Origin: Planctomycetota bacterium | GTDB lineage: Bacteria > Planctomycetota > UBA8108 > SXIK01 | Direction of reading: 5' to 3' | Assembly: GCA_965223265.1 (NCBI GenBank) | Contig: OZ244999.1 | Location: 8,992,001-9,056,000, forward strand | DNA: 64,000 bases | In this document: positions 23,620 through 55,763 of the stretch, piece by piece | Layout of the letters: each line of letters starts with the position of its first letter | Numbering within the stretch: position 1 is the stretch's first letter | Made by a program: the position numbers and the translations under genes | Notes under the pieces: generated by a model | Seen by the model: the letters and a program-made list of their open reading frames with translations, nothing else | Told to the model about the DNA's origin: nothing | Database searches by the model: none

Positions 23620-23715
23620 GAGACGGAGACAGACGCCGTCGTTGCGAAAGAGAGGCGCTTCTTAGCCATGCGGGATGCGATTGCGTGTGGGAGTGGAGTG
23701 GGCGAGTGCGAGTGC
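23620..23715. repeat. hexamer-array locus B
   Basis: GAGACG GAGACA GACGCC 3 nt after the stop at 23616, then an oppositely oriented block (CGATTGCGTGTGGGAGTGGAGTGGGCGAGTGCGAGTGC). Confidence 0.6.
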
Positions 23716-23718
23716 TCA

Positions 23719-23870
23719 AGTAGCAAGCACACTCCGAGCTGGGAAGTTTTTGAAACGTGCCGTCGCAACTCACGGAACCCTCCGGAACGGCACACGGCGT
23801 GTGCCTGCTACTATAGAGACGTCGCCAACGCGCTCTTCAAAGTAGCAGGCACACGCCGTGTGCCGTTCCG
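23719..23870. repeat. GTAG-family REP cluster (REPIN-like)
   Basis: perfect 30-bp inverted pair 23783-23812 / 23841-23870 (AGTAGCAGGCACACGCCGTGTGCCGTTCCG), plus an interrupted copy starting at 23719. Confidence 0.85.
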
Positions 23871-24035
23871 AACGCGGGTCCAACGGGCGCCAGTTCAGTC
23901 GAAGGTCCGAATTGGCCGACACGGCACATCGGCAACCTCACCAAGCGTGAGTTCGCCGCGACGCCCCACAATCGCCGATCGCGCCTGAGGAGAAGGGTTT
24001 AAAAGCCCTTCCTGCGAAAAACTTATGCAACTGCA

Positions 24036-24110
24036 GGGGCAGAGACGGAGACTGAACGCCCACGCCCACGCACAACGCACAACGCACAACGCACAACGCA
24101 CAACGCAAAC
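24036..24110 (+). repeat. hexamer/heptamer array locus C
   Basis: GGGGCA GAGACG GAGACT, CACGCC units, then CGCACAA x5 (24069-24103). Confidence 0.8.
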
Positions 24111-34030: not shown

Positions 34031-34372
34031 GGGACGGAGATGGAGACAGACTTAGAGACAGATTCAGACGCAGAGGCAGATTCAGAGACAGAGACAGAGA
34101 CAGATTCAGACTCAGATTCAGACTCAGACTCAGATTCAGATTCAGATTCAGAGACAGACGCAACGCGCCCACGCACACGGGAACGGGAACGGGAACGGCC
34201 GAGCGCACGCCGACAAGGCCGGACGGCACACGGAGAGGCTGTGAGTTTTTGAGAACGAGTGGTGGCGACGCACGGTCACAGTCACGTTCGACGGTCGCGT
34301 CCAGAACGGCACCCGGCGCGTGCCTGCTACTTGAGCACTCGCACACCCCACACGCACACGCACTCGCTCACG
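34031..34372 (+). repeat. hexamer-array locus D (bipartite) with embedded REP sequences
   Basis: about 22 GANNCR-type units (GAGACA/GATTCA/GACTCA) at 34031-34162, then CACGCA/AACGGG units, with further CACGGT/CACGCA units around the REP. Confidence 0.85.
34304..34331 (-). repeat. GTAG-family REP
   Basis: reverse complement AGTAGCAGGCACGCGCCGGGTGCCGTTC, same family as 23841-23870. Confidence 0.8.
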
Positions 34373-35980: not shown

Positions 35981-36157
35981 GGGGCAGAGACGGAGGCGGA
36001 AGGCGCAGAGAACGATTGACCTCGCTGCGCTCGGGCGGCGACCACGTTCGCCTCTCTTGACTTTCTGGCCTCTCATGGAAGGCAGCTAGCGCCGACGCCG
36101 ACCCCCACGGTCACGCTCCCTCCCCCTCCCTCTCCCACCCCACGCCCACGCCCACGA
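35981..36157 (+). repeat. degenerate hexamer-array locus E with cassette-like motifs
   Basis: GGGGCAGAGACGGAG (identical to the start of locus C), CCTCGCTGCGCTCGG, CCACGTTCGC, then CACGCC units. Confidence 0.5.
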
Positions 36158-41371: not shown

Positions 41372-41612
41372 GAGGCGGAGACAGAGACGGACACAGAGAC
41401 AGAGACGGATACGGAGTCAGATACCGATGCGGAGACAGAGACGGACACAGAGACAGAGGCGGATACGGAGTCAGATACCGATGCAGAGACAGAGATAGGA
41501 GAGACACAGAGACCGAGTCGGACTCAGAGGGGACGCGAACGCCTACGCAAACGCAGAACGCCCACGCCCACGCCCACGCCCACGCAAACGCAAACGCAAA
41601 CGCAAACGCAAA
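41372..41612 (+). repeat. hexamer-array locus F (bipartite) with a 54-bp higher-order duplication
   Basis: GANNCR block starts 1 nt after the stop; 41377-41430 and 41431-41484 differ at 1 nt; CACGCC/AACGCA block ends just before the next ATG. Confidence 0.9.
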
Positions 41613-41627
41613 GCAGGACTACCACCG

Positions 41628-47115: not shown

Positions 47116-47378
47116 GACTGTGCGCCGACTGCGAGTGCGAGTGCGATTGCGAGTGCGAGTGCGTGTGCGTGGGCGTGGGCGTGGGCGTGTGCGTGTGCGT
47201 GTGCGTGTGCGTGTGCGTGGGCGTGGGCGTGCGAACCTCCCCGCCTGTCTCTGTATCCGCCTCCGCTTCTGCCTCCGCCTCCGCCTCTGGTATCTGTCTC
47301 TGTATCCGCCTCCGCCTCCGCCTCTGTAGCTGAATCTGTATCTGAATCTGTATCCGCTTCTGCCTCCGCCTCTGCCTC
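47116..47378 (-). repeat. hexamer-array locus G (bipartite)
   Basis: minus strand: GAGGCA/GAGGCG/GATACA/GATTCA block abutting the RluA stop, then CACGCC/CACGCA/CACTCG block. Confidence 0.9.
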
Positions 47379-50623: not shown

Positions 50624-52186
50624 TCATGCCGTTCCCAGCAGAGCGCTCGCTTCAGACCAAACTGCCCAAACTGCGAAGAACCCGAAAAAGAGAATTGCCC
50701 ACAACATGATCAGCAATCGAGGCCAACGCATTCGAATCGCCGGCGGGAGCTTCCATCGATTGAGGCACACCAGGGTGATGCAGTAGAGAAACATCACTAA
50801 TCCGTTCATTGCTGCGCTGAACTTGAAGAGGGCAAAGGCGCTGAATCTTTTCTCGCCGATCCAAAGGATCGTGCAGCCAATAAGGATCGTGGCCCAGAGG
50901 AAACAGTAGTAGACGCGGCTTTCGGTCCAGCGGTCACTCTCACGTAACCAATTGACCTTGACGATATCCGTGGAGACGCGACTCGCTGCGTCGAGCACGC
51001 CGAATTCGGTCGTCAGGAGCAGGGCGATTCCCATAAGCAGAAAGAGGAGCTTCGGGATGGCTCCGAACAACTCATCGATCCGCACGGCTTCACCCCAGAT
51101 GAAGCTCATGTTCTTCTGATACTGCTCCGCGCCGACGGCGAGCGTCCCGTCCGGCTCATAGAAGATGCAGTAACTGATCAGCGTCAGCAGGACAAGGCAG
51201 GCGAGACAGGTGCAGAAGAAGGACACGAAGTGTTCGGTGTTCGTTGCCTTCCACCACCGGCGCCAACGAGCAAGATTCTCTGCCGTTGGAGGGAACTGGT
51301 AGCCGACTTCGGAGATGGCCTCCTCTTGGCCGGTGATCGGGCTAGTGATACGGCCGATGAATCGCCCCATACCGTAGCCCTTATCTTTGATGTAGTTGCT
51401 CTGACACAGATTGAGTGTCCCGCCGACACCGGCAAACGCGAGAGCTCCAAGTAGCGTTGCCGCCGTGAGCTCGCCGCTGAGCTCCGGCAGTCCCCCGAAG
51501 TTGAGCGCACCCTCGATCTGCGCGGCAATCGCGTCCGGTCGAACGAGATAGGCGGCGAGAACGACAACGAGTAGGAGCGCCAGTGACACCAAAACCAGCT
51601 GCACCTTTTCGATCGTCTCGTAGAGAACTTTTCCAGCCGTAAGAATCATGCCGCAGCAGAGAAGTCCACCGATTGCCAGCGGCGTTTCCGCCGGTGACGG
51701 CGACGAATCGCCCGTCCAAATCCAGCAAACGATCTTCGCCGAGCCGCGCGCCCAGCTTGGAACTACCCACGGTACGATGTTGAGCACCAAAAAAACCCAT
51801 GCCCAATGCTTGCTCAGCCGGGCAAACCCCGCGATCGCCGTTTCGCCAGTGGCGAGACTCCAGCGCGCGACTTCCATATTGATGAAGAACTGCGTCGTGA
51901 CACCCAGAAGGCAGGCCCAGAAGAATACGAACTGACTGGCGTACGTGATGTACGGCCAAAACACAAACTCGCCGCTGCCGAGCGCCAATCCGGCGAGAAT
52001 TACGCTCGGTCCCAGCATGCGCCGAAATGGGACGGGTTCGGGCAGGTCAGCAACCTTGAGAGGTGGCAAATCCCCGGGCGAGATCATGTCCTTTGACTCG
52101 TTTGCGGCCCCGACGCCGGACGGGCGCGGTGGCGTGGGCTGCGGAGCCGAAGGTTCGGTCGGATCGGAAGCGTCAGGGTCGTGCAT
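50624..52186 (-). CDS. Nramp-like (YcsG-type) APC-superfamily transporter
   Basis: LGPSVILAGLALGSGE, many TM segments. Confidence 0.85.
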   Translation of the reverse strand: MHDPDASDPTEPSAPQPTPPRPSGVGAANESKDMISPGDLPPLKVADLPEPVPFRRMLGPSVILAGLALGSGEFVFWPYITYASQFVFFWACLLGVTTQFFINMEVARWSLATGETAIAGFARLSKHWAWVFLVLNIVPWVVPSWARGSAKIVCWIWTGDSSPSPAETPLAIGGLLCCGMILTAGKVLYETIEKVQLVLVSLALLLVVVLAAYLVRPDAIAAQIEGALNFGGLPELSGELTAATLLGALAFAGVGGTLNLCQSNYIKDKGYGMGRFIGRITSPITGQEEAISEVGYQFPPTAENLARWRRWWKATNTEHFVSFFCTCLACLVLLTLISYCIFYEPDGTLAVGAEQYQKNMSFIWGEAVRIDELFGAIPKLLFLLMGIALLLTTEFGVLDAASRVSTDIVKVNWLRESDRWTESRVYYCFLWATILIGCTILWIGEKRFSAFALFKFSAAMNGLVMFLYCITLVCLNRWKLPPAIRMRWPRLLIMLWAILFFGFFAVWAVWSEASALLGTA

Positions 52187-52337: not shown

Positions 52338-53663
52338 ATGTCAGGCATGGGAACTTCTCGTTCGAATCCGTCAACCACAGCCACGCGCCGAGCGTTTTTG
52401 CAGAAAGTGTCTCTGGCGACGGCTGGATTCCTGGTGAGCTCTCCTCTGCCCCGCCTTTGGAGCGGGTCGCCAAATGAGAAACTCAACATCGGTATCGTTG
52501 GCGTCAGCGGGCGTGGGGGCGCGAATCTCAAGGGAGTTGCGCACGAGAATATCGTCGCTCTATGCGACATCGATGACCAGAAGCTTAGTCAAGCCGCGTC
52601 GCAGTTTCCCGGCGCGAAGAAGTACAACGATTTTCGCCTTCTCCTCGACCAGAAAGACATCGACGCGGTTGTGATCAGCACGCCTGATCACATGCACGCG
52701 CCGGCCACGGTAGCCAGCCTGAAGGCTGGAAAACACGTCTACTGTGAAAAGCCGCTGACGCACTCGGTGTACGAGGCCGACGTCGTTCGTACTCTCGCCA
52801 TGGAAAGCAAGCTGGCGACGCAAATGGGAACGCAGATTCACGCGCTCGACAATTACCGTCGCGTCGTCGAACTCATTTCGACCGGAGCGATCGGGAACGT
52901 CCACGAGGCGCATGTTTGGGTCGGGAAGTCATGGTCGGGCGGAGATCTTCCGAAAGAGCGTCCTCCCGTTCCCGCGCATATCCATTGGGATCTTTGGCTC
53001 GGGCCGGCTCCAGCGCATCATCGTTACCATCCGACGTTGCTGCCGGCGAATTGGCGTCGCTGGTGGGACTTCGGCGGAGGCACTCTCGCCGACATGGGAT
53101 GCCACTACCTTGACCTGCCGTTCTGGGCTCTCAATCTTCAACACCCCACGAGAGTCAGCCCTCTTGCTGGTTCGCCCGTGCATGCTGACGGCGCTGGCGA
53201 CAAACTCGTGATTCGCTACAAGTTTCCGGCGCGCGGTACGCTGCCGCCCGTGACCCTGACGTGGTACGACGGTGGCCAGAGGCCGCCGCACTTCGCTCAA
53301 GGGCTTTTGCCCGAATGGGGCGACGGAGTTCTTTTTGTCGGTCAACGAGGAATGTTGATTGCCGGCTATTCGAAATACCAGCTCTTACCCGAGAGCGATT
53401 TCTCCGAGTTCGAGCCGCCAGCGCCATTCATCCCAACTTCGGTCGGGCACCATCAGGAGTGGATCGACGCTGCCAAGACGGGAGCGCCGACGACGTGCAA
53501 CTTCGGGTATGCGGCGACGCTGACGCAGACGGCGCTTCTCGGCAACGTCGCGCATCGTGTCGGTCGGGAATTCGCCTGGAACGGGCAAGACCAACAGGCG
53601 CCGAATTGCCCCGAGGCCGGCCGCTACTTGCGGCGTGAGTACCGTCGAGGCTGGACGCTGTAG
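52338..53663 (+). CDS. Gfo/Idh/MocA oxidoreductase with Tat signal
   Basis: TRRAFLQ, STPDHMH, HVYCEKPL, DMGCHYLD. Confidence 0.93.
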   Translation: MSGMGTSRSNPSTTATRRAFLQKVSLATAGFLVSSPLPRLWSGSPNEKLNIGIVGVSGRGGANLKGVAHENIVALCDIDDQKLSQAASQFPGAKKYNDFRLLLDQKDIDAVVISTPDHMHAPATVASLKAGKHVYCEKPLTHSVYEADVVRTLAMESKLATQMGTQIHALDNYRRVVELISTGAIGNVHEAHVWVGKSWSGGDLPKERPPVPAHIHWDLWLGPAPAHHRYHPTLLPANWRRWWDFGGGTLADMGCHYLDLPFWALNLQHPTRVSPLAGSPVHADGAGDKLVIRYKFPARGTLPPVTLTWYDGGQRPPHFAQGLLPEWGDGVLFVGQRGMLIAGYSKYQLLPESDFSEFEPPAPFIPTSVGHHQEWIDAAKTGAPTTCNFGYAATLTQTALLGNVAHRVGREFAWNGQDQQAPNCPEAGRYLRREYRRGWTL

Positions 53664-53728
53664 CTATTTGGCACTGGCCGATCGCGCTGAGACGAGAAAG
53701 GAGCGCGAAGGCGGGAGGGCGACCGCGG

Positions 53729-53810
53729 CGATTGCGTGGGAGTGGGAGTGCGGCCCGTCTCCGTGTCTGGATCCGTATCTGTTTCTGATGCTGCCTCCGC
53801 CTCTGAATCT
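53729..53810 (-). repeat. hexamer-array locus H (left direct repeat of cassette)
   Basis: + strand CGATTGCGTGGGAGTGGGAGTG...GCCCGTCTCCGTGTCTGGATCCGTATCTGTTTCTGATGCTG... Confidence 0.85.
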
Positions 53811-53862
53811 GTAGCAGGGGTCACTGTACGGCGGCGGTCATTGTCGAGTGTACGCGGTGCTC

Positions 53863-53917
53863 GGGGCAGTCAAGGGTGCCCTCGCTGCGCTCGGCGCTTC
53901 GCGCCCTTGACTGCCCC
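53863..53917. other. palindrome upstream of the four-helix-bundle gene
   Basis: perfect 14-bp IR GGGGCAGTCAAGGG / CCCTTGACTGCCCC enclosing CTCGCTGCGCTCGG-CGCTTCGCG mini-hairpins. Confidence 0.8.
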
Positions 53918-53995
53918 TCCGCTCCGCGTTGGGGGTGGAGTACCGCCGCCCGGACGTGGCGGGCTTTCGACTCACCTTTTCTGCGGAGGCTTCAC

Positions 53996-54319
53996 ATGCG
54001 TTTCATCGCTCTCGATGTTAGTCTCGCTTTGATTGGCGATTTGCGAATTCCTTTGGCGCGGCTTCGGCGGCTCGATCCCGATCTGCATCGGCAGCTTCGG
54101 CGCGCTGCTTCTTCGGTGGCGCTCAACCTCTCGGAAGGCGCCGAGCGCGCTGGGAAAGATCGCCAGCACCTCTTTCGCGTCGCGCGCGGCAGTGCGCGCG
54201 AGGTCGAGACCGCGCTACGACTGGCTCTGGCTTGGGGCGATCTGAGAAGCGACGACGTCACGACGCCTCTCGAGACGCTTGATCGCCTGCTCGCGCTTCT
54301 TCGCGGGCTGACTCGCTGA
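53996..54319 (+). CDS. four-helix-bundle protein (23S rRNA-IVP / Avd-like family), 107 aa
   Basis: GGAGG RBS + ATG 53996; hallmark QLRRAASSVALNLSEG and FRVARGSAREV. Confidence 0.9.
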   Translation: MRFIALDVSLALIGDLRIPLARLRRLDPDLHRQLRRAASSVALNLSEGAERAGKDRQHLFRVARGSAREVETALRLALAWGDLRSDDVTTPLETLDRLLALLRGLTR

Positions 54320-54388
54320 GCGTGCGAGCCCATGCGCCCGCCACGTTCGCGGCGGGCGCACTCCCTTACGTTTTCGATGAGGCGGCGC

Positions 54389-54528
54389 CCGTGGGCGTGA
54401 ACGATTGCGTGTGCGTGTGCGTGTGCGTGGGCGTGGGCGTGCCCGTCTCCGTCTCTGGATCCGTATCTGTTTCTGATGCTGTCTCTGCCTTTGCCTCTGA
54501 ATACTGCCTCTATCTCTGTCTCCGCCTC
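54389..54528 (-). repeat. hexamer-array locus I (right direct repeat of cassette)
   Basis: starts 5 nt after the stop of the FAD oxidoreductase with GAGGCGGAGACAGAGA (as locus F), then CACGCC/CACGCA block containing CGATTGCGTG on +. Confidence 0.88.
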
Positions 54529-54533
54529 TTGAC

Positions 54534-55763
54534 TCAGCTACCACGCGTCCAGCGGACCAGCGCGTCGCTGAGACCCGGCCAGCCCGCGGCCGTAGCGACC
54601 ACCAGCTCTGCCATTCTTGGCCGCAAAAGCGCCGCCTGAAGCAGCCCACCGACGCGAAGTCGCGTTCCGTATTCCTTCTCCCATTGGCGATGCCACGCCG
54701 CGCCGCGCCAAGGCTTGTCCATCACGTCGGTGCCTGGCTGCGGCGTGAGCCGCCGCGCGAGCGCGCGAGCGCTGTCGAGCGCCATGGCCTGTCCATCGCC
54801 GCAGAGCGGCGAAATCATGCCGGCGGCGTCGCCGACGCGCGGGAAGTCGCTGTCGATTGAACGCGTTCTCTCCATGGCGCCGGCGGCAATGGTGAGAGTC
54901 GGTGTCGCCTCCGGAATGAGGGTCGCGAGGCGCTCGGCAAGAAGCGGGTTCTGACGACCGAGGGCAAGCGCGAGCGTCTCCCAGCGCGAGCTTTCCAGGC
55001 GTTTGATGAACGACGCTCTCAGGAAGGCACAGACATTGACCAGCTGATCTTGGATCGCGACGATTCCACAGTACCCGCCTCGGACGAGGTGGACCTCGAC
55101 CGTGCGTTCGAGAGCGCGACGTCCTTCCAGAGCCGTGGGTGCGAAACGATGGTGGCGTTTGACGCCAACGAAGAGAGGTCGTCGCCTCACTCTCAGCGGT
55201 TTCCGGTGGCGTCTGGGAGCACCGGCGACCGGTTGCACGGTTTGTTCCAAACGCCCTTCGCGACCATACGCTCCGATGACAAGCGCCGCCACGACGGACT
55301 CTTCGCGTCGGCGGTTTTCCATGCAGCGATAGGTGACTCGGCGAACCTGGTTTGAGCTTGTCGCTCCCTCGACGCGGATAACCTCCGTGCCTTCGCGCAC
55401 CGAGACTCCCGACGTCACTGCATTCTTGAGCAGAATCGAGTCGAACACACGGCGGCTGATCCCAAAGCCGTCGCCGGGCAGGCTCGTCTCGACCACGCGT
55501 CCTGCCGGTGTGGAGAATCGTGCCTGGGAAACGCGGGAAGCACCGGCTGCGACGACGGCATCCAGACAGCCCAGCTCTTGAAGGACGGGTAATGATTCGG
55601 GCGAGAGGAACTCACCGCAGAGCTTGTCACGTGGAAAGTGCTCGCGCTCGAGAAGAACCACTCGCTGTCCTGTCCGCGCCAGAAGCGTCGCCACGGTACT
55701 GCCGGCGGGACCACCACCAACGACGGCGACATCGAACGGCTCTGGTTCCAAGCGCTGAATCAC
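54534..55763 (-). CDS. NAD(P)/FAD-dependent oxidoreductase (geranylgeranyl-reductase-like), type III PKS associated
   Basis: VVGGGPAG, FPRDKLCGEFLSPE, VGDAAGMISPLCGDG. Confidence 0.9.
   Translation of the reverse strand: MIQRLEPEPFDVAVVGGGPAGSTVATLLARTGQRVVLLEREHFPRDKLCGEFLSPESLPVLQELGCLDAVVAAGASRVSQARFSTPAGRVVETSLPGDGFGISRRVFDSILLKNAVTSGVSVREGTEVIRVEGATSSNQVRRVTYRCMENRRREESVVAALVIGAYGREGRLEQTVQPVAGAPRRHRKPLRVRRRPLFVGVKRHHRFAPTALEGRRALERTVEVHLVRGGYCGIVAIQDQLVNVCAFLRASFIKRLESSRWETLALALGRQNPLLAERLATLIPEATPTLTIAAGAMERTRSIDSDFPRVGDAAGMISPLCGDGQAMALDSARALARRLTPQPGTDVMDKPWRGAAWHRQWEKEYGTRLRVGGLLQAALLRPRMAELVVATAAGWPGLSDALVRWTRGS

Follow-up and report, generated by a model that had tools for sequence, protein, structure and literature searches.

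What maintains a small four-helix-bundle gene, accompanied by no transposase and surrounded by tandem hexamer repeats, in the gap between two unrelated genes of a planctomycete genome? The gene lies in a 64,000-nucleotide stretch of contig OZ244999.1 (assembly GCA_965223265.1, Planctomycetota bacterium; positions 8,992,001 to 9,056,000 of the forward strand). We refer to this whole stretch as the window, and coordinates are those of the window unless they are given as genome positions. The gene, a 107-aa open reading frame (ORF) at 53996-54319 (+), forms part of a cassette with discrete boundaries that is present in many copies and whose protein is under purifying selection. The cassette is statistically tied to arrays of hexamer repeats, both here and in distant genomes, and arrays and cassettes are polarised relative to replication. 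With modest confidence, we read it as a selfish cassette of the S23p/intervening sequence (IVS) family that has no transposase, resides in dispersed hexamer arrays and probably spreads by way of them.

A multicopy gene of the S23p family

The original prediction, made from the sequence alone, placed a small four-helix-bundle ORF between two convergent and unrelated genes. The ORF is present there as a unit distinct from its neighbours, and it belongs to PF05635 (49.6 bits, cut-off 33.8) and TIGR02436 (49.5 bits, cut-off 24). XCC0516 (PDB ID: 2GSC) was its sole sequence match in the PDB, with an E-value of 3.6e-10. The predicted structure of the protein has a pLDDT (predicted local distance difference test) of 95.8, and this model aligns with 2GSC and with BT_0352 (PDB ID: 2RLD) at template-modelling (TM) scores of 0.84 and 0.85. 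Comparison of the model with Avd, the accessory protein of diversity-generating retroelements (PDB IDs: 4DWL and 8UB7), gave TM scores of 0.80-0.85 at a sequence identity of 8-10%. A strong Shine-Dalgarno sequence, GGAGG at 53985-53989, is positioned 6 nt ahead of the ATG. To our knowledge PF05635 is a large family whose function has been unknown since the 1990s, Avd in retroelements excepted.

The genome consists of one 9.18-Mb contig (60.8% G+C). The gene is multicopy: PF05635 has 38 matches genome-wide, 36 of which are intact and above cut-off. The intact genes fall into two types of 107-aa paralogs, A (n = 19, including this copy, which stands alone) and B (n = 17). The two types are ~50% identical to each other, and identity within type A is 84-90%. 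Median dN/dS is 0.13 for type A and 0.14 for type B, indicating purifying selection, and dS between subfamilies reaches 0.4-0.9. Three young sisters of this copy, at genome positions 749573, 2073030 and 6976310, differ from it by a dS of 0.045-0.08. Decayed and truncated copies also exist in the genome. At seven loci the two types form convergent A-> <-B pairs, for example at genome positions 7450527-7451661 and 8303311-8304435; this pair module of ~1.7 kb is bounded by inverted leaders and is 86-97% identical between copies. The spacer array of the pairs (~220 nt) is inverted in the copy at 7450611 relative to those at 7189350, 8303383 and 9141739. A PADLOC search with the type A and type B proteins returned zero hits.

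Structure of the cassette

Alignment of the 19 type-A loci, together with BLAST comparison to all copies, delimits a conserved unit of ~0.54 kb at ~53823-54360. The four-helix-bundle gene is the sole ORF of this unit, which encodes no transposase or recombinase, in line with the transposase-free element that had been proposed. The unit and its immediate surroundings comprise the following features, all given on the + strand.

53728-53752 (+): short G-type hexamer array (GCGATT/GCGTGG/GAGTGG units); left end of the block common to the three youngest sisters
53753-53822 (+): T-type hexamer array T1 (TCYGYC units), with a 41-nt head at 53753-53793 that is one of 9 genome copies
53823-53995 (+): leader common to A and B cassettes, with the hairpins P0, P1 and P2 and the Shine-Dalgarno sequence
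53826-53860 (+): hairpin P0 of the leader
53863-53917 (+): palindrome P1 of the leader, arms 53863-53879 and 53901-53917
53943-53962 (+): hairpin P2 of the leader (7 bp), in the 5' untranslated region (5'-UTR)
53996-54319 (+): type-A four-helix-bundle gene, S23p / 23S rRNA IVS protein family, 107 aa
54333-54360 (+): GC-rich 3' hairpin P3, directly past the stop codon, lacking a U tract; forms the right-hand boundary of the cassette
53926-54371 (+): long-range 5'/3' helix of this copy's own, 53926-53964 with 54336-54371
54361-54400 (+): linker past the 3' hairpin, common to the four youngest copies and diverged in the cassette-less paralogous site
54401-54441 (+): G-type hexamer array (GCGTGT/GCGTGG units); right end of the sister-shared homology block
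54441-54530 (+): T-type hexamer array T2, head 54441-54481, which stops 4 nt short of the stop codon of the oxidoreductase gene to the right

The 14-bp perfect palindrome noted upstream of the ORF corresponds to the inner 14 nt of P1, the arms of which extend over 17 nt with 94% complementarity. The leader folds into three hairpins with a z-score of -4.08, and 0 of 200 dinucleotide shuffles were as stable. In 28 genes, from both types, P1 is found 82-93 nt ahead of the ATG, and the 39-nt palindrome is near-identical between A and B leaders even though the proteins are only ~50% identical. The observation that each arm of the bracketing inverted repeat is itself a local hairpin also holds, the two hairpins being P2 and P3 (arms 54333-54345/54348-54360). 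In an alignment of 14 copies, 93.7% of the cells in P1, the 5'-UTR hairpin and P3 are paired. Seven of their pairs (21 cells) carry compensatory changes, a level reached by 0 of 500 shuffles, though the 14 copies are kin and the count hence does not amount to a probability. For P3 by itself, 99.2% of cells are paired and two pairs show compensatory changes. Two invariant G-U pairs in the leader and 3' hairpins favour a fold of the sense strand.

Searches of the locus for other elements were negative: Rfam had zero matches within 53500-54700, and scans for sigma-70 promoters (16-18 nt spacing) and intrinsic terminators each returned none at the locus. An outward-pointing promoter on the minus strand, TTGACT-N15-TACACT, had been proposed in the left arm of the palindrome; its letters are present, but it is not among promoters of 16-18 nt spacing and it is not conserved in type B. 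We rejected it as a feature of the family, since TTGAC[AT]-N15-TAnnnT is found in 11 of 19 A copies and type B has TTGAGG and other hexamers.

The cassette is bounded by hexamer arrays

The unit was originally described as enclosed by direct repeats embedded in hexamer arrays. The match of 40 out of 41 nt is present, as part of a 59-nt repeat with 90% identity (53753-53811 and 54441-54499) whose 41-mer heads differ at one position, and CGATTGCGTG is found near the left ends of both arrays as described. These repeats are not target-site duplications, however, because they are two members of a T-array head that has nine copies in the genome: two here, one upstream of each of the three sisters, one downstream of one sister and three at gene-less sites. 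What encloses the unit is a pair of [G][T] modules from a backbone that recurs in the genome.

This copy and its three youngest sisters share a block of ~700 bp, from 53727-53733 to 54422-54441, which therefore starts and ends inside G arrays; the flanks beyond it are unrelated. One of the three gene-less sites with the T-array head, at genome position 6961656, is paralogous to this locus: it aligns over the first G and T arrays, the linker and the G array that follows, and is without precisely ~53816-54356, which is to say the leader, the ORF and the 3' hairpin. At another site, genome position 5573570, the leader is preserved as far as the palindrome and ends there. A systematic search for adjacent flanks yielded, beyond the 6961656 pair, just one tandem tract of arrays and repetitive extragenic palindromic (REP) sequences and one weak case. 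Contigs from four sequencing runs of one study end at 53855 and resume at 54413, and none of them joins across a cassette-less site, which makes them uninformative on this point; no RNA run was found to contain the sequence. This layout fits copying or loss of the cassette via recombination between arrays, in the direction of either insertion or deletion.

Cassettes are tied to dispersed hexamer arrays

A lag-6 autocorrelation scan detected 199 period-6 arrays in the genome with a total length of 23.4 kb, compared with one array at the control lag of 5 and three at lag 7. An excess of periods 6, 12 and 18 was also seen with Tandem Repeats Finder. The arrays are composed of a G type (GCGTGG/GCGTGT/GCGTTT) and a T type (consensus TCYGYC), usually in the order [G][T], that is [GCGTGN]n followed by [TCYGYC]n, and they reach up to ~300 nt. 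One strand of each type is pyrimidine- or C-rich. Their folding is no better than chance against dinucleotide shuffles (z = -0.18 and +1.06) and worse than chance against mononucleotide shuffles (z = +1.1 to +4.7). We had considered the arrays as hairpin arms, with the G array pairing with the T array; the shuffle comparison rules this out.

When all four-helix-bundle genes of the genome were checked for flanking arrays, as the original prediction had suggested, 25 of 38 were found to lie within 500 nt of an array, compared with 2.0% of random genome positions and 5.4% of random intergenic positions. Genes and arrays keep a constant orientation to one another, type A reading in the sense of the [G][T] arrays and type B against it, and convergent pairs are laid out as G, A->, T, <-B, T. 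With intergenic regions defined by the crude gene calls of our own ORF model, 58 of 158 intergenic arrays fall in convergent gaps, whose share of intergenic length is 14%. Between genes in tandem the arrays show no preferred orientation with respect to the neighbouring genes (17/13 and 17/16).

The repeat arrays reported across the window are also there, in the form of several further period-6 arrays. Gene-less [G][T] arrays are located at 23676-24107, 34047-34372, 36090-36156, 41375-41626 and 47116-47378, where they fill intergenic gaps up to stop codons, some of them beside REP-like hairpins. A recurring GTTGCRAAARAGA linker, with 41 copies genome-wide, is joined to some gene-less arrays. 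We know of no explanation for the short-period intergenic arrays that are found in many bacteria.

Arrays and cassettes are polarised relative to replication

Cumulative GC skew places the origin of replication at ~7.9 Mb and the terminus at ~3.5 Mb, and a gene of the DnaA family at 7.96 Mb is near the origin predicted in this way. Relative to these positions, the GRCRGA/CCACGC reading is on the leading strand in 116 of 164 oriented arrays and in 79 of 106 clusters (p = 4e-7). The bias persists where no four-helix-bundle gene is nearby (62 of 84 clusters) and where no REP element is nearby (61 of 78 clusters). Among the genes, 16 of 17 type B copies are co-directional with the replication fork, as are four of 19 type A copies. 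As the polarity of the arrays follows replication and ignores transcription, it points to a fork-linked process at the level of DNA rather than of the transcript.

The bracketing inverted repeat is not a conserved loop-out device

Imperfect inverted repeats do bracket the ORF, as had been described, with 14-nt arms at 53951-53964 and 54336-54349 that are 93% complementary. In the minimum-energy fold of 53860-54372, the segment 53926-53964 pairs with 54336-54371 through 33 pairs, and the whole fold has a z-score of -3.62. The pairing of the arms is the strongest among all 36 copies, with a duplex energy of -62 kcal/mol, and an IVS-like loop-out of the ORF may occur in this copy. As a general mechanism, the loop-out of the original prediction is not supported. 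The long-range helix is present in the minimum-energy folds of three of 19 A copies (25-33 pairs), and 0 of 17 type B copies have more than 11 long-range pairs. Cognate and non-cognate type-A arms are of equal stability (-49.2 and -49.3 kcal/mol). In the 14-bp core, pairing is possible for 89% of cells over 14 copies, and covariation does not exceed that of shuffles. The rarity of the helix in the A folds and the lack of covariation in its core indicate that IVS-like loop-out is not a conserved property or mechanism of the cassette; the complementarity of the arms stems from a GGCGGGC/GCCCGCC motif that is common to two independently conserved local hairpins.

Related cassettes in other genomes

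PF05635 was not found in three genomes of the same family, and one genome of the same order had 13 matches, several of them at contig ends. Scanning species-representative genomes with an alignment of types A and B identified 69 related loci, mostly in metagenome-assembled genomes (MAGs) of Myxococcota at 40-60% identity. Period-6 arrays are present at 28 of these 69 loci, mostly immediately next to the gene, while the control lags of 5 and 7 together gave four arrays; of the nine loci with arrays on both sides, eight are direct and one is inverted. The array unit at many of the loci is CGGANN, which is the complement reading of the T type described here. A CAAGRN..NYCTTG pair is located upstream in 23 of the 69 loci, where ~2 would be estimated by chance. 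One locus in a Myxococcota MAG has a full convergent pair, a GTCAAGG..CCTTGAC leader and direct GGAGAC arrays. In one same-order genome (G007), nearly the same palindrome is present at four of the eight loci examined, three of which adjoin arrays. A full-text literature search, taken to the level of search results, returned no account of PF05635 cassettes that are embedded in arrays and lie outside rRNA.

Elements associated with the leader palindrome and the arrays

The genome contains six copies of a 2.74-kb element encoding a 702-aa large serine recombinase with Resolvase, Recombinase and Zn-ribbon domains (genome positions 6779060-6781799, 2581200, 7186400, 8597854, 8835401 and 8979589). 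They are recent, because they are 99.4-100% identical. All six are inserted at the same point, the palindrome base of type-A leaders (..GCGGGTG^TCAAGG..), and on this sequence evidence the leader palindrome appears to serve as the attachment site of the element. In one of the six host cassettes the gene carries an internal deletion.

A REP-like hairpin, GTAGCAGGCAC..GTGCC, has 271 copies in the genome compared with 0 for a reversed control. It is within 300 nt of a hexamer array in 90 of the 271 cases and shows a replication bias of its own (188/271). Three copies are located in the window, at 23789, 23842 and 34308, with none within 53700-54540, and one is found within 600 nt of seven of the 38 four-helix-bundle genes. 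At the locus 4205381-4208593 of the genome, a single gene resembling a REP-associated tyrosine transposase (RAYT; Y1/HUH family, 215 aa) is flanked by 11 of the REP-like hairpins in a REPtron-like arrangement.

Matches to the reverse transcriptase family PF00078 are located at genome positions 1895554, 3424405, 3516453 and 5913461, none of them near a four-helix-bundle gene. All four have a score of 127.7 bits, in ORFs of 449-455 aa, and they resemble copies of a single retroelement, which may be a group II intron. Adenine mutagenesis of the arrays, in the manner of diversity-generating retroelements, was no more than a passing idea in view of reverse transcriptase genes that are distant and equal in score.

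Genomic surroundings

To the left of the cassette is a Gfo/Idh/MocA oxidoreductase gene (52338-53663, +) and to the right a flavin adenine dinucleotide (FAD)-dependent oxidoreductase gene (54534-55763, -); the locus is thus between two protein-coding genes and not in an rRNA gene. At 50624-52186 (-) the window encodes a 520-aa predicted multi-pass membrane protein that has no Pfam match at E <= 0.01. The genome also has 98 matches to the PSD1 domain, which is typical of Planctomycetota and suggests a genome of that type.

Weighing the explanations

An IVS-like RNA element, in which the 5' and 3' repeats would pair in the transcript, loop out the ORF and present a helix for RNase III to cut, would account for the ~33-bp helix in the minimum-energy fold of this copy (z = -3.62) and for a 14-bp core that is pairable in 89% of cells. 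It would also fit the protein family and the adjacent short tandem repeats, both of which match the Coxiella IVS (PMC4990558). The helix is nevertheless found in just three of 19 A folds, type B never exceeds 11 pairs, covariation is not above that of shuffles, and cognate arms are no more stable than non-cognate ones. Each arm is a local hairpin that is conserved and carries compensatory changes, the direct arrays are no more stable than their dinucleotide shuffles, and the locus is outside any rRNA gene; we consider this account very unlikely. Mobilisation in trans, with the leader palindrome as the recombination site for the serine recombinase or for the RAYT-like Y1 transposase, seems to us similarly improbable. 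All six serine-recombinase elements do sit at the palindrome base of type-A leaders, but they are recent and the cassettes that they interrupt come from diverged subfamilies; their insertion breaks up the leader without moving the cassette, which stays where it is, and none of the six is in a type-B leader. On the side of the Y1 enzyme there is one RAYT-like gene with its 11 flanking hairpins, and the hairpins are replication-biased (188/271). Against this, a REP hairpin is within 600 nt of only seven of 38 genes, none lies in 53700-54540, and cassettes of the same grammar occur in other phyla.

The arrays and the gene family might also serve the host, the former as unstructured C-rich spacers or terminators, for example in two-way Rho loading, and the latter as small nucleic-acid-binding regulators. 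The location of 58 of 158 intergenic arrays in convergent gaps (14% of intergenic length), their abutment on stop codons and a pyrimidine-/C-rich strand that folds no better than chance are what such spacers would look like, and a dN/dS of 0.13 over old copies and the strong Shine-Dalgarno sequence are in keeping with a useful gene. What makes this explanation unlikely in our view is that array orientation is independent of the neighbouring genes and tracks replication, and that an intrinsic-terminator-like site was not detected at the locus. Furthermore, the family is absent from the three same-family genomes searched and patchy in the order, its copies are at contig ends in fragmented relatives, and decayed and truncated copies exist.

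Several observations weigh against the selfish cassette that we favour. The majority of copies, being old (dS 0.4-0.9) and under purifying selection, would also fit a host-useful gene family. Movement of a cassette was not observed. The one filled/empty pair of paralogous sites could equally reflect deletion, and no second clean empty site came out of the systematic flank search. The sole candidate for a duplication is GCA, present at both cassette junctions here and once at the cassette-less site 6961656, from a single pair of junctions, and terminal inverted repeats could not be made out at 53823 and 54360. The FAD oxidoreductase gene was found in one of 40 relatives, at 47% identity, and its best match among metagenome contigs was at 43%, so that no close relative is at hand for this site. 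This copy is among the four co-directional type-A genes and therefore in the minority orientation. Finally, the origin and terminus were placed by GC skew only, and the intergenic statistics depend on the crude gene calls mentioned above.

In the selfish reading, the cassette would be a module without a transposase, the copies of which would arise and be lost by recombination or copy-choice between dispersed arrays. Copying would probably use single-stranded DNA at the fork. The protein, basic and probably ring-forming, would presumably act on the nucleic acid of the array or of the leader, and gene-less arrays would be relics or landing pads. A broader version, which we put forward as a speculation and think unlikely, would have S23p/Avd-like proteins as the trans-acting factor of widespread transposase-less cassettes that copy themselves via single-stranded hexamer arrays at the fork, with A and B each reading one strand; the many unexplained short-period arrays between bacterial genes and the ORF-bearing rRNA IVSs would then be products of one system.

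The genome offers a well-resolved case on one 9.18-Mb contig, with 36 intact copies of two types, 199 arrays, a filled/empty pair and a clear polarity relative to replication. The vague idea of a 'selfish IVS' becomes concrete as two questions: which hexamer strand A and B would each bind, and whether a cassette can be copied from array to array. As the only target of the recently active serine-recombinase element, the leader palindrome also provides a natural pair of attachment site and recombinase to characterise.

Comparison with known systems

The nearest relatives of the cassette are the ORF-bearing IVSs of 23S rRNA in Coxiella burnetii, Leptospira, Xanthomonas and Brucella, with which it shares the PF05635 protein family and the arrangement of a small ORF in a unit of ~0.4-0.55 kb with hairpin-forming ends. 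According to PMC4990558, the Coxiella IVS is 428-444 nt long, carries the S23p ORF in its loop and has a 28-bp terminal stem that is cut by RNase III; two or three tandem GACAGAT heptamers precede the ATG, and the ORF is apparently decaying and probably untranslated. The same paper cites a homopentameric ring for the Xanthomonas S23p protein and an earlier proposal in which the IVS is a mobile element that its ORF helps to move. Short tandem repeats thus adjoin the ORF in both systems, and the GACAGAT reported there resembles the GRCRGA reading of our T hexamers; IVSs, too, have long been suspected of being selfish or mobile (PMC4990558). Unlike the IVSs, the cassette is outside rRNA, between protein-coding genes, its arrays are long, direct and non-pairing, and a terminal stem is not conserved. 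It also differs from the Coxiella IVS in its 36 intact copies, strong Shine-Dalgarno sequence and purifying selection.

Avd of the diversity-generating retroelements is a pentamer. The titles of its structure entries describe a ring-forming, nucleic-acid-associated ribonucleoprotein partner. The cassette protein has the same four-helix-bundle fold (TM 0.80-0.85 to 4DWL/8UB7), yet it shares only 8-10% sequence identity with Avd and has no reverse transcriptase nearby, the four matches being at 1.9, 3.4, 3.5 and 5.9 Mb of the genome. Nor is there a template and variable repeat pair beside the gene, although no search was aimed at one; the repeats seen here are tandem hexamers.

The high copy number of intergenic repeats with hairpins and the strand bias relative to replication recall REP sequences and bacterial interspersed mosaic elements (BIMEs) with their RAYTs, as well as the IS200/IS605 elements; IS608-type elements have a strand bias relative to replication. 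The cassette is unlike these systems in that it encodes no HUH/Y1 enzyme and in that its arrays are tandem hexamers rather than palindromes.

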